Below are positions 4,824 to 6,396 of a stretch of DNA of 64,000 bases, piece by piece. The translations under genes were made by a program, and so were the position numbers. The notes beneath the pieces are model-generated. The model made no database searches and had not been told where the DNA came from. It saw nothing but the letters and a program-made list of their open reading frames with translations. Numbering within the stretch: position 1 is the first letter of the stretch; the number at the start of each line of letters is the position of its first letter. The stretch is from Escherichia coli (lineage in GTDB: Bacteria > Pseudomonadota > Gammaproteobacteria > Enterobacterales > Enterobacteriaceae). The DNA lies in assembly GCF_003334815.1 (NCBI RefSeq), contig NZ_QOWO01000017.1; one strand, written 5' to 3'.

Positions 4824-5386
4824 AGCAAGCGAACATCCACGGCGTCCATGCCTGCTGCACGGGCCGCCTGAATACCGAAATCGGCATCTTCAAAGACCAC
4901 ACACTGCGTCGGTTGCACGCCCATACGCTGCGCGCACAACAAAAATGTGTCTGGCGCGGGTTTATGGTGTTTGACGTGATCGGCAGCGACGACGGCGTCA
5001 AAATAATGGCGTAATCCCAGGTGCGCCAGCAATGCCTCAGCGATGGCGCTTTCACTCCCCGTTCCTACAGCCATTGGGCGACGACCATGCCAACTTTTCA
5101 CCACATCAACAAGAGGAAGCGGTTCGACGCTATCCAGCAGCATACTTCTTACTGCTTCTGTTTTTTCACGCGCTAACGCATGCGGGTCGAGATCGGCCTG
5201 ATTCAGCTCAATAATTGCCTGAGCAATACGCCAGGTGGGCGATCCATTAAGCGCAATCATCGCCTGAATATCGTACTGAAGACCGTAGTGCCCTAATACT
5301 TCGCGCCACGCTTTACGGTGCGTAGGCTCCGTATCCAGGATTGTGCCATCCATATCAAAAATTAAACCTGCATAACGCTCGTACAT
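4820..5386 (-). CDS. yqaB: HAD-superfamily sugar phosphatase YqaB
   Basis: N-terminal DxDGT HAD motif (LIFDMDGTILDTE); 188 aa. Confidence 0.88.
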   Translation of the reverse strand: MYERYAGLIFDMDGTILDTEPTHRKAWREVLGHYGLQYDIQAMIALNGSPTWRIAQAIIELNQADLDPHALAREKTEAVRSMLLDSVEPLPLVDVVKSWHGRRPMAVGTGSESAIAEALLAHLGLRHYFDAVVAADHVKHHKPAPDTFLLCAQRMGVQPTQCVVFEDADFGIQAARAAGMDAVDVRLL

Positions 5387-5666
5387 GGTCTTCTCGCAAG
5401 TCGAAAAATATGACGCTACTTTAGCGTAATTGCTTGATTTTGTCGCTGATGGCGAAGGAGAAGAAAATTCAGGAAATGGATAAAGGAGTTATTTAGAAAT
5501 GAGATATTTTTGAAGGAAATTTTTTGGAGAAGATGGTGCATCCGGGAGGATGACTCACTGACGTTCGCCCTTCGGGCCGTTGCTGGCGCAACGTTATCCT
5601 TCCTGGTGCCTGCGGTTAATACCGCTATCTCTTCGATACCTTCATTGCTGAAGGTTACGGAGAATA

Positions 5667-5743
5667 TGGTGCATCCGGGAGGATTCGAACCTCCGACCGC
5701 TCGGTTCGTAGCCGAGTACTCTATCCAGCTGAGCTACGGATGC
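5667..5743 (-). tRNA. tRNA-Arg (anticodon ACG), 77 nt
   Basis: Reverse complement reads GCATCCGTAGCTCAGCTGGATAGAGTACTCGGCTACGAACCGAGCGGTCGGAGGTTCGAATCCTCCCGGATGCACCA. Confidence 0.95.
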
Positions 5744-5941
5744 ATCGGGAAAACTTATTCTACTGCTGATATTGATACCGCTACTAAAGCCATATCAATT
5801 AAGAGATGGTGCATCCGGGAGGATTACTCGCCTTGCGGCTCGCCCTTCGGGCCGTTGCTAAAGCAACGTTATCATCCCTAGTGCCTGCGGTTAATACCGC
5901 TATCTCTTCGATACCTTCATTGCTGAAGGTTACGGAGAATA

Positions 5942-6018
5942 TGGTGCATCCGGGAGGATTCGAACCTCCGACCGCTCGGTTCGTAGCCGAGTACTCTATC
6001 CAGCTGAGCTACGGATGC
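5942..6018 (-). tRNA. tRNA-Arg (anticodon ACG), 77 nt, identical to the copy at 5667..5743
   Basis: Identical 77-nt sequence. Confidence 0.95.
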
Positions 6019-6021
6019 AAA

Positions 6022-6114
6022 TGGCGGTGAGGCGGGGATTCGAACCCCGGATGCAGCTTTTGACCGCATACTCCCTTAGCAGGGGAGCGCCTTCAGCCTC
6101 TCGGCCACCTCACC
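6022..6114 (-). tRNA. serV: tRNA-Ser (anticodon GCU), 93 nt with long variable arm
   Basis: Reverse complement reads GGTGAGGTGGCCGAGAGGCTGAAGGCGCTCCCCTGCTAAGGGAGTATGCGG...CGCCTCACCGCCA. Confidence 0.93.
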
Positions 6115-6396
6115 ACACGCCTCTTACGAGTGCTTCGAAGAACTTGTTTATCGCTCATCGTCGCTGCGTGGCGCACATATTACTTTCTGAGACTTATAAG
6201 TCAAACAATTTTTCCTACACTTTTATCGTTTGCACACTTCACGTTCAATTAGTCTGTAAAAACGTCAAAAAGAGTGTTTTATCAACAGAAGAATGGAGGT
6301 CTGACAGATAGTAGTAATGCAAAAAAATGGAGACTTAAGTTGAATGAACGGGAGTAAAGCGAAAAGACTATAGAGTGAAGGAGAAATTTTGAGGGT

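Follow-up and report, generated by a model that had tools for sequence, protein, structure and literature searches.

The closest described relatives of the locus analysed here are repeats of 178 bp that reportedly occur in the tyrT operon and are known as RtT, or rttR, repeats (Rfam RF00391; Egan and Landy 1978; Rossi et al. 1981; Bosl and Kersten 1991). Like the trailers of the serV-arg operon described below, these repeats lie directly after a tRNA within a tRNA operon, vary in unit number, and end in the last 19 nt of the tRNA including the CCA, followed by U-rich sequence. The two also have in common a core composed of CGUUGC-loop-GCAACG, GRCCCGAAGGGY, a variable third hairpin and GAGUAAUCC, and a closing helix that uses the 3′-end copy. 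Other RNAs are known that take the form of tRNA minihelices or by-products, namely acceptor/T-arm minihelices cut by RNase P, the mascRNA of MALAT1 and the tRNA-like domain of tmRNA. Within E. coli tRNA operons, the leuZ 3′ETS and the metZ-metW-metV spacers reportedly act as sponges of small RNAs (Lalaouna et al. 2015).

The window, i.e. the whole 64-kb stretch of E. coli DNA that was analysed, contains serV followed by two tRNA-Arg(ACG) genes, flanked by yqaB and csrA as in the four-copy operon (Table 1). The two Arg genes are identical, as had been noted from the sequence (a 77-nt exact match, found twice), and the direct repeat proposed to contain them is present as 180 ungapped nt of 97% identity at a spacing of 275 nt, or ∼213-215 nt in total with a 2-nt indel. 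The predicted promoter implies a leader of ∼56 nt ahead of serV, in agreement with the reported length of 52-56 nt (PMC7049720). Additional Rfam matches on or opposite the tRNA genes (Plastid-ycf2, Plastid-psbI-rps4, HPnc0260, YrlA, mascRNA and others) were far below threshold and were rejected as tRNA look-alikes.

Table 1. Features of the serV-arg operon, in window coordinates and in order of transcription.
Feature	Positions	Strand	Basis and remarks
Sigma-70-like promoter of the serV-arg operon, TTGACT-16-TAATAT	6177-6204	minus	Consensus match alone
serV, tRNA-Ser(GCU)	6022-6114	minus	ARAGORN; Rfam tRNA 56.8 bits
tRNA-Arg(ACG) copy 1	5942-6018	minus	ARAGORN, Rfam; probable argV/argZ-position recombinant of the four-copy array
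RtT-like element 1, 135 nt	5807-5941	minus	Begins right after the tRNA CCA; Rfam RF00391 27.1 bits
Element 1, 5′ domain, two hairpins	5914-5929, 5887-5900	minus	Consensus structure
Element 1, P1 5′ strand, GCACUAGGGAUGAU	5871-5884	minus	Consensus structure
Element 1, hairpins hp1, hp2, hp3	5853-5868, 5842-5852, 5830-5839	minus	Consensus structure
Element 1, P1 3′ strand and ACCA tail (3′-end copy 1)	5807-5825	minus	19 nt, AATCCTCCCGGATGCACCA / AAUCCUCCCGGAUGCACCA, identical to the tRNA-Arg 3′ end
Leader of tRNA-Arg copy 2, 63 nt	5744-5806	minus	Homologous to the entire 62-nt argY-argZ short spacer of four-copy arrays
tRNA-Arg(ACG) copy 2, argQ position	5667-5743	minus	ARAGORN, Rfam
RtT-like element 2, 133 nt, operon trailer	5534-5666	minus	Rfam RF00391 22.8 bits; plan as element 1
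Element 2, P1 5′ strand, GCACCAGGAAGGAU	5596-5609	minus	Plan as element 1
Element 2, hairpins hp1, hp2 (hp3 reduced)	5578-5593, 5567-5577	minus	Plan as element 1
Element 2, P1 3′ strand and ACCA	5534-5552	minus	Plan as element 1
tRNA 3′-end copy 2, 17 nt, UCCUCCCGGAUGCACCA	5534-5550	minus	Repeat search
Intrinsic-terminator-like hairpin ACGCUAAAGUAGCGU, then CAUAUUUUU	5405-5427	minus	Consensus match alone; ∼105 nt past element 2

Relation of the trailers to the RtT family

The original prediction drew attention to the ends of the two trailers, each of which was said to reproduce the tRNA 3′ end next to two conserved small hairpins. Both copies (19 and 17 nt) were found where they had been placed, and together with the two real tRNA ends they form a four-member family of 26-nt repeats; the CCA is followed by UAUUCU behind the tRNAs and by UCUCUUAAUU or UCUUCUCC behind the copies. 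Both hairpins are likewise present in each element, as CGTTGC-N4-GCAACG (hp1) and GCCCGAAGGGC (hp2), although the loop of the first, given as four or five nt, is four nt in both copies (UUUA versus GCCA). The compensatory-looking differences attributed to these two hairpins did not hold up, as the first differs only in its loop and the second is identical between the copies. The sole double change that preserves a stem lies in the third hairpin (GCC-GCAA-GGC versus AC-GUCA-GU; pair 104-113, G-C to A-U). Element 2 is identical to the argQ trailer of K-12.

Both elements matched the RtT model over its full length with scores (Table 1) below the gathering threshold of 45 bits, and the arg elements of K-12 scored 22.8-31 bits with this model versus 133-137 bits for the tyrT repeats. 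A search with a model derived from 22 elements of the Tyr, Lys and Pro types and zero Arg sequences identified element 1 at 47.3 bits (E = 6.9e-11) and element 2 at 35.2 bits (E = 1.4e-7), E-values that are rough because the calibration was shortened, and gave no further match elsewhere in the 64-kb window. As in RtT, both elements are located directly downstream of a tRNA and end in its own 3′ end plus CCA, and in both the upstream strand pairs with the 3′-end copy and encloses the core hairpins. Unlike its Tyr, Lys and Pro counterparts, the Arg type has neither of the inner 5′ hairpins in the RtT model (GAGAACC..GGUUCGA and CGAGCG..CGAG); two unrelated hairpins outside the closing helix (P1) are present instead, and the P1 5′ strand stands only 2 nt before hp1 (a gap value of 4, counted from 8 nt upstream of the core match, versus 41-47 in the long forms). 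The Arg type further differs from RtT in that P1 extends along the whole acceptor strand, so that ACCA alone is unpaired, and in that its 3′ end is that of tRNA-Arg and not of tRNA-Tyr.

We conclude from these sequence comparisons that the trailers in the window are diverged, shortened members of the RtT family and not isolated mimics of a tRNA end. The NCBI PGAP pipeline annotates an RtT sRNA three times after lysQ and zero times in the arg array, and the elements are unannotated in RefSeq. The assignment fills an annotation gap: two or three RtT-type elements missed by current pipelines lie in the arg operon, both in E. coli and in its relatives. A similarity between rtT and BIME repeats has been reported (PMC2965389), which in all likelihood relates to the REP sequence that follows the tyrT repeats and not to the core.

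The P1 closing helix and its distribution

The two elements are predicted to fold with minimum free energies of −51.7 kcal/mol (z = −4.1, element 1) and −49.9 kcal/mol (z = −4.8, element 2), and none of 200 shuffles folded as well. In an alignment of the Arg type from six genera, 97% of the cells were paired, compared with 27-47% when the partners were slid, and P1 comprised 12 pairs; the corresponding values for the Tyr, Lys and Pro types were 95.6% and 36-50%. In the latter alignment, four of the nine P1 pairs vary in both partners according to tRNA type, and the P1 5′ strand pairs with the copy of its own type at 5.2 of 6 type-specific positions versus 3.4 of 6 for other types. The Arg-type P1 shows zero two-sided changes, because its 3′ strand is fixed, and three one-sided changes, all of which keep G-U pairs. 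In the window, P1 contains a single mismatch in each element, U-C in the case of element 1 and A-C in that of element 2.

In the structure modelled from these data, the mimic provides the 3′ strand of a closing helix, which resembles the stack of acceptor and T stem and from which ACCA protrudes unpaired. The copy of the T-stem and acceptor 3′ strands would pair with an upstream strand that resembles the acceptor/T-stem 5′ strands (GCACCAG-GGAGG-AU), three small hairpins would stand in place of the T loop, and with only ACCA single-stranded the module would be a look-alike of a tRNA minihelix. This description is restricted to the Arg type, since a full acceptor-strand match in P1 was rejected for the Tyr, Lys and Pro types, in which P1 covers the T stem plus only 3-4 acceptor pairs and a tail of 7-8 nt is left; only Arg-type elements have the complete minihelix. 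With minihelix substrates, mascRNA and tmRNA the Arg-type element shares a stacked acceptor/T-stem-like helix (12-14 pairs), a 3′ ACCA overhang and a position inside a longer transcript, but it has three hairpins in place of a T loop and lacks D and anticodon arms. It is called neither by ARAGORN, which reports only the three tRNAs, nor by the Rfam tRNA model even at E up to 10, and RNase P cleavage and CCA repair would be hypothetical here. The 35-year-old puzzle of RtT is thereby given a testable form, as a helix that would imitate the top half of the host tRNA and co-vary with that tRNA.

Across genera, such elements follow tRNA-Tyr, -Lys, -Pro and -Arg as well as 5S rRNA, each with the host RNA's own 3′ end. 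A contig scan gave at least 120 loci, and because ∼75 of the 120 listed were chance 16-mer matches in unrelated phyla, this census is a sample and not a survey. Of the 73 matches listed for the Tyr, Lys, Pro and Arg(ACG) types, 59 share their last 16 nt with the tRNA ahead of them, and four further matches follow 5S rRNA and carry the 5S 3′ end. The copy tracks lineage-specific changes of the tRNA (L039, L063), and the element is found at the same locus across genera. Copies that decay, such as a Salmonella trailer without CCA and the first Klebsiella spacer, which is degenerate, indicate that constraint is not uniform. We tentatively propose that the RtT-like elements might constitute one superfamily, present in Enterobacterales, Orbales and Oceanospirillales behind 5S rRNA and five or more tRNA species, in which each member carries the 3′ end of its own host and a matching complementary strand and the Arg type forms the complete minihelix. 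If so, the elements would have spread to the 3′ ends of stable RNAs by a duplicative, target-copying process, or they would have a role tied to processing, the module being treated as a surrogate tRNA by RNase P, RNase E, RNase T and the CCA enzyme. In the literature searched, neither reading seems to have been put forward for RtT.

These observations bear on the possibility, which we regard as a serious one but doubtful, that the copies and elements are neutral leftovers of partial duplications and unequal crossovers that have no role as RNA, the helix simply hiding a stray tRNA 3′ end that would otherwise misfold the real tRNA. Units do appear to be freely gained, lost and amplified (139 versus 275 spacing; tandem units without a tRNA), some copies decay, no function of RtT has been established since 1991, and deletion of argYZQ together with the elements is viable (PMC13170351). 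However, six or more enterobacterial genera have retained the core hairpins and P1, which also persist between tRNA types with two-sided changes, the elements fold far better than shuffles, and simple local duplication does not explain the same core behind five tRNA species and 5S rRNA.

Copy number of the array

The original prediction assigned four tandem Arg genes to K-12 and regarded the array in the window as contracted. The K-12 count is correct (MG1655 argV, argY, argZ and argQ, whose starts lie 275, 139 and 275 nt apart), and in place of the 275/139/275 arrangement the window has two genes 275 nt apart. Across 5,426 complete E. coli genomes the 77-nt Arg gene occurs 21,504 times (mean 3.96, median 4, range 1-9), with four copies in 53 of 60 genomes of an evenly spaced sample. 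The nearest relatives also have four: 24 kb of the window are 100% identical to FORC064, A14, NCTC9041 and 52F4, all of which are four-copy strains, and positions 5300-6299 equal 52F4 base for base minus exactly 414 bp. Four copies being both the modal state and that of the nearest relatives, the comparison supports a contraction.

The upstream junction of copy 1, after serV, is of the argV type and its downstream spacer is of the argZ type. We consider it probable that the array is a one-step deletion derivative of serV-argV-argY-argZ-argQ and that its long spacers and trailers, as diverged and shortened RtT-family members, are co-transcribed with the tRNAs. The 414 bp (the argV spacer, argY and the short spacer) would have been lost when the argV unit recombined unequally with the homologous argZ unit, the crossover being confined to a perfectly identical tract of 83 nt that comprises the 77-nt tRNA gene and TATTCT. 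Such an event would resemble other copy-number changes of tandem tRNA genes by unequal homologous recombination, in that one repeat register is cleanly lost within an identity tract, the change recurs independently and dosage matters; the only particular point here is the compound 414-bp register (275 + 139). We rejected a unique two-event chimera as the origin of the 198-nt spacer (an argQ-trailer-like 5′ part and an argZ-spacer-like 3′ part), because the four-copy array of 52F4 carries the identical spacer and one deletion therefore suffices. The finding that no genome matched this spacer at 99% or more was an artefact of averaging identity across joined BLAST pieces.

Alternatively, the genome could have four copies, the assembly having passed from serV through the shared 77-nt tRNA node into the argZ-argQ spacer. 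The retained sequence is a legal path in the repeat graph, the nearest finished relatives are all four-copy, and the best match over the locus in complete RefSeq genomes is 99.8%, so the window's genome may be a draft. The two-copy state is also rare: among the best 60 listed of the 5,426 genomes, at least 13 finished genomes of unrelated lineages have the long-spacer form and ∼26 genomes have a short-spacer form. Nevertheless, we judge an assembly artefact to be unlikely. The same clean deletion is present in finished genomes of unrelated lineages, including O104:H4 2011C-3493, S17-1, M8, G1/2 and MC1061, the last of which carries it relative to K-12; the skipped and retained spacers differ at many positions, so near-identical copies were not merged; the locus lies within a contiguous 64-kb window; and most assemblers would be expected to break contigs at such nodes and not to skip. 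That this allele recurs among finished genomes speaks for a real deletion and against assembly collapse.

tRNA-Arg(ACG) decodes the commonest arginine codons. Deletion of argYZQ, three of the four copies, has been reported to reduce tRNA-Arg2 16-fold and to cause a growth defect in LB (PMC13170351), and by analogy halving the gene number probably lowers fitness during fast growth. As a rare yet recurrent state, the two-copy allele would therefore illustrate mutation-selection balance in a tandem array.

Processing and possible roles

The mimics had been suggested to be processing signals, decoys or relics of duplication. Our analysis points to something narrower: as modelled above, the mimic forms the 3′ strand of the conserved helix that closes an RtT-family element, and since it is conserved across genera, a fresh relic of duplication is rejected. 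RNase E cuts 1-3 nt past the encoded CCA of tRNAs in A/U-rich sequence (PMC2190699). In the U-rich sequence past the CCA of the copy, RNase E cleavage and RNase T/PH trimming would proceed exactly as they do behind a genuine tRNA, with a possible further cut by RNase P where P1 begins on its 5′ side. The spacer would then be released as a stable, tRNA-sized by-product and maturation of the neighbouring tRNAs would be undisturbed. At the level of DNA, the 19-nt copies repeat the tRNA 3′ end in direct orientation, and exchange between them could add or remove elements (275 versus 139 spacing) and would keep the copy identical to the tRNA. From sequence features of this kind, we infer that the elements are a by-product of tRNA processing and that the repeats also drive the gain and loss of units. 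Release of a discrete RNA during tRNA processing has been reported for the tyrT unit only (Bosl and Kersten 1991).

A released RNA might also act in trans, as a regulator or sponge (in keeping with the stringent-response proposal for RtT or with the leuZ 3′ETS), as a decoy for factors binding the CCA ends of tRNAs, or as a guide that presents the 5′ strand of the cognate tRNA to RNase P. The tail matches the cognate tRNA 3′ end even where it is unpaired and tracks tRNA variants, the rttR region is stress-responsive, and a connection between RtT and amino-acid starvation responses has been reported (Bosl and Kersten 1991). We consider an action in trans improbable, since only ACCA is free in the Arg type, leaving no guide sequence, and exchange with the tRNA gene can also account for the identity of the tail. 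The leuZ 3′ETS and metZWV spacers resemble the by-product proposed here in being stable RNAs from the processing of a tRNA operon spacer or trailer, a release that for the arg elements is predicted, but they differ in having short RyhB/RybB pairing sites and no tRNA 3′-end copy.

Integrative elements reportedly create a second copy of the 3′ portion of a tRNA gene, starting at the T loop, and can stack in tandem (for example Williams 2002), and the repeat here likewise begins in the T loop. It is nonetheless very improbable that the direct repeats are attachment-site scars of an integrase-driven element once inserted in the tRNA gene, and we rejected a mobile origin: searches of phage and plasmid collections gave it no support, all substantial matches (most of the query covered) being misfiled pieces of chromosome, no integrase or other cargo lies between yqaB and csrA, the element occupies one fixed locus in the various genera, and the 116 nt between the repeats are a conserved, folded RNA module.

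The tRNA-Arg(ACG) array and its probable contraction

The minus strand of the window carries a small stable-RNA operon flanked by csrA and yqaB, in which the direct repeat, the four tRNA 3′-end copies and the small hairpins of the original prediction are real and lie where they had been placed. The promoter-like site implies a serV leader of ∼56 nt, in agreement with the 52–56 nt reported in the literature (PMC7049720).

Features of the operon in the window and 5S-type elements at other loci (coordinates of the latter are local to each locus)
Feature	Location	Coordinates	Strand	Remark
Promoter-like site	window	6204-6177	−	consensus match
serV, tRNA-Ser(GCU)	window	6114-6022	−	
tRNA-Arg(ACG), first copy	window	6018-5942	−	
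Spacer between the two tRNA-Arg(ACG) genes	window		−	198 nt
Element 1, within the spacer	window	5807-5941	−	
tRNA-Arg(ACG), second copy	window	5743-5667	−	identical to first
Element 2, trailer after second tRNA-Arg(ACG)	window	5534-5666	−	133 nt
Putative ORF	window	5416-5541	−	41 codons
Terminator-like hairpin	window	5427-5413	−	consensus match
5S-type element	L026	108-221		Superficieibacter electus or Siccibacter colletis
5S-type element	L103	89-201		Superficieibacter electus or Siccibacter colletis
5S-type element	L105	9972-10084	−	Superficieibacter electus or Siccibacter colletis
5S-type element	L106	232-344		Superficieibacter electus or Siccibacter colletis

The array had been proposed to be contracted from the four-copy state of K-12, and both points hold. 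In MG1655, the starts of argV, argY, argZ and argQ are 275, 139 and 275 nt apart. Across 5,426 complete E. coli genomes the 77-nt gene was counted 21,504 times (mean 3.96, median 4, range 1–9); when 60 of these genomes were sampled at even intervals, four copies were found in 53 genomes, three in 3, five in 2, and two and six in 1 each. Over a further 24 kb, the window matches FORC064, A14, NCTC9041, 52F4 and other strains at 100% identity, and every one of these strains that was checked has four copies.

Dissection of the spacers showed that the normal array consists of a tRNA gene with a 135-nt element and a 63-nt leader, a tRNA gene with a 62-nt leader, a tRNA gene with element and leader, and a tRNA gene with element and terminator region. 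The window spacer and the argZ-argQ spacer of 52F4 have the same sequence, and removing 414 bp from the 52F4 locus yields window positions 5300-6299 base for base. Because the sequences diverge at once on both sides, the crossover must fall in the tRNA gene and the next six bases (83 nt of perfect identity). MC1061 differs from K-12 by the same deletion, and the long-spacer two-copy form is present in at least 13 finished genomes of unrelated lineages, including O104:H4 2011C-3493, S17-1, M8 and G1/2; elsewhere, three copies or a two-copy form with a short spacer were found. Given this recurrence, we conclude that the contraction is a rare, recurring allele of an ordinary type; in this genome recombination is the probable cause of the two copies and an assembly error the less likely one. 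When three of the four copies are deleted, tRNA-Arg2 falls 16-fold and cells grow more slowly in LB (PMC13170351), which would account for the rarity of short alleles.

In MC1061 (locus L002), one of the two remaining tRNA-Arg(ACG) genes has C11 changed to U in the D stem, at the position equivalent to window 5733; the change is absent from all other tRNA-Arg(ACG) genes, would make a U-G pair, and reflects either a sequencing error or a genuine mutation in a strain that had already been reduced to two copies. XL10-Gold (match H121, NZ_CP081008.1, 4656236-4656535) has six tRNA-Arg gene matches, one of them split in two pieces with "hypothetical protein" annotations and far from the normal locus.

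Relationship of the trailer elements to RtT

RF00391, the Rfam model of the tyrT-operon repeat RNA (RtT), covers both window elements at full length with 27.1 and 22.8 bits, below the gathering score of 45; the four tyrT-operon units of K-12 score 133–137 bits and its three arg elements 22.8–31 bits. The likeness lies in the 3′ 70 nt, which comprise AACGUUGC-loop-GCAACG, GRCCCGAAGGGY, a third hairpin, GAGUAAUCC, the host-tRNA 3′ end and then a U-rich stretch. To examine homology independently of Rfam, we built a covariance model from 22 aligned elements that follow tRNA-Tyr, Lys or Pro, gathered by one scan of the genome collection (a sample of loci) and excluding Arg sequences. The only hits of this model in the 64-kb window were the two trailers, which scored 47.3 bits (E = 6.9e-11) and 35.2 bits (E = 1.4e-7), these E-values being rough. 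Thus, the arg elements form a shortened branch of RtT that lacks annotation; the family is already known, as is its link to several tRNA operons, and the tRNA 3′-end "mimic" is its hallmark.

The NCBI annotation pipeline places three "RtT sRNA" features downstream of lysQ in E. coli; no such label was found in the arg array of any annotated genome inspected. At the lysQ locus of EcPNK004 (L134:1225-1659), three tandem units are noted "RtT sRNA, processed from tyrT transcript"; they actually follow tRNA-Lys and carry its 3′ end, and the standard note is misleading there. The tyrT RtT unit has an annotated small ORF (tpr). In the window, a putative 41-codon ORF, which may be a chance occurrence, has its ATG within the tRNA-end copy of the trailer (GGATGCACCA).

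The Tyr/Lys/Pro model identified 88 elements at 53 sampled loci in about 25 species. At the sampled loci, the terminal 16 nt exactly reproduce the 3′ end of the adjoining upstream tRNA in 20 of 25 Tyr, 22 of 28 Lys, 6 of 7 Pro and 11 of 13 Arg(ACG) elements; in marine Oceanospirillales, three elements that follow tRNA-Arg(CCG) agree with the tRNA end at 9–10 of 16 positions. The copy also tracks lineage-specific changes, matching an Enterobacter tRNA-Tyr that ends in CCCCCGCCACCA and a Citrobacter youngae tRNA-Lys that ends in GCACGCCCCACCA. In Superficieibacter and Siccibacter, four elements are located between a 5S rRNA and a tRNA; their terminal sequence, AACUGCCAGGCAU-CAAAUUA, is the 5S rRNA 3′ end and the bases after it. 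Tandem units without an intervening tRNA also occur.

In these elements, from Superficieibacter electus and Siccibacter colletis, the conserved core precedes tRNA-Thr or tRNA-Asp, its DNA end (AACTGCCAGGCAT plus CAAATTA) is a roughly 20-nt copy of the 5S 3′ end and flank, and an upstream GGCAGTT is complementary to that copy; the RtT-like element thus seems to have a 5S counterpart. Beyond Enterobacterales, elements were seen in marine Oceanospirillales, including Marinobacterium lutimaris (L043) and Amphritea (L077, L078, L011, L075), with tRNA-Arg(CCG), tRNA-Lys and tRNA-Tyr as hosts. The CGTATAGGAT of the Amphritea Lys element pairs perfectly with its own variant copy, ATCCTATACG.

A predicted closing helix formed by the tRNA-end copy

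The window elements have predicted folds of −51.7 and −49.9 kcal/mol (z = −4.1 and −4.8), matched by 0 of 200 shuffles. The original prediction described hairpin differences between them as compensatory-looking. In the two hairpins it named this does not stand, the first differing only in its loop (UUUA versus GCCA) and the second being identical; the sole stem-preserving double change is in the third hairpin.

Both in the predicted fold and in a consensus of 15 Arg-type elements (E. coli, Salmonella, two Klebsiella species, Enterobacter and Kosakonia), the tRNA-end copy is paired rather than free, AUCCUCC-CGGAUGC with upstream GCACCAG-GGAGG-AU. The upstream strand is collinear with the 5′ strands of the tRNA acceptor (GCAUCCG) and then T stem (GGAGG), with 10 of 12 positions agreeing for Enterobacter and Kosakonia, and 8 of 12 for the window spacer element. 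The modeled helix of 12–14 pairs would therefore imitate stacked acceptor and T stems, with three hairpins in place of the T loop and exactly ACCA unpaired. In the Arg-type alignment, 97% of cells are paired, versus 27–47% with partners slid by one to three columns. Only one-sided, G-U-preserving changes occur within this type because the 3′ strand is held constant.

Two-sided change is seen when tRNA types are compared. In the Tyr/Lys/Pro alignment, 4 of 9 closing-helix pairs change on both sides with the host tRNA, including 2-115 (GC in 9 sequences, CG in 8), 5-112 (GC in 17, AU in 5) and 6-111 (AU in 8, CG in 7, GC in 3, UA in 1). Paired cells amount to 95.6%, versus 36–50% when slid, no shuffle matched the covariation score, and upstream strands pair with copies of their own type at 5.2 of 6 type-specific positions versus 3.4 of 6 for other types. 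The Tyr, Lys and Pro helices end after three or four acceptor pairs, leaving a 7–8-nt tail, and in long forms an inner hairpin contains the T-stem 5′ strand of the host tRNA and UUCGA. Among the types compared, only Arg elements have the complete minihelix, and their predicted tRNA-minihelix fold is unusually complete for the RtT family.

Possible roles in processing and exchange

These analyses point to conserved, folded elements within the transcription unit, in which the copy is predicted to form the closing helix. Downstream of the copy comes a U-rich stretch resembling the one that follows genuine tRNAs. Maturation of 5S rRNA likewise involves RNase T, and RNase P accepts minihelices made of an acceptor/T arm and a 3′ CCA. 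Where CCA is encoded, RNase E cuts 1–3 nt beyond it in A/U-rich sequence, and RNase T and RNase PH trim next (PMC2190699). We propose that the copy turns the distal end of each inserted unit into a normal 3′ processing site, so that clean excision would release the unit as a stable by-product and leave the following tRNA with its usual leader; an additional RNase P cut, made where the helix begins on its 5′ side, may yield a tRNA-sized RNA from Arg-type elements. RtT function becomes testable because the closing helix co-varies with the host RNA and the family extends to 5S rRNA. A trans-acting role and a purely neutral history are rival explanations.

In the DNA, the copies repeat the tRNA end directly over 19 nt. 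Recombination of copies with one another and with tRNA genes would explain presence or absence of the element (275- versus 139-nt spacing), tandem amplification and lasting identity of copy and tRNA, and the same kind of exchange between the longer tRNA-gene repeats probably produced the 414-bp loss. That these repeats are instead an attachment-site scar is poorly supported, because in the phage and plasmid collections searched the element was absent from real phages and plasmids, and it has no cargo. These collections include chromosomes or chromosome contigs (CP125156.1, 5.37 Mb; NZ_OL790696.1, 4.8 Mb; AGRM01000002.1; and others), and the record behind a match should be checked before it is read as evidence of mobility.

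Decayed elements were also observed. In the Klebsiella spacer after the first tRNA-Arg (L132:481-630 and L133:358-507) the core is recognizable and the tRNA-end copy eroded (GAGTCACTCTACCGATTAGGCCATCA), and the Salmonella houtenae trailer (L131:1174-1333) has lost its CCA (GGATGCGTCA).
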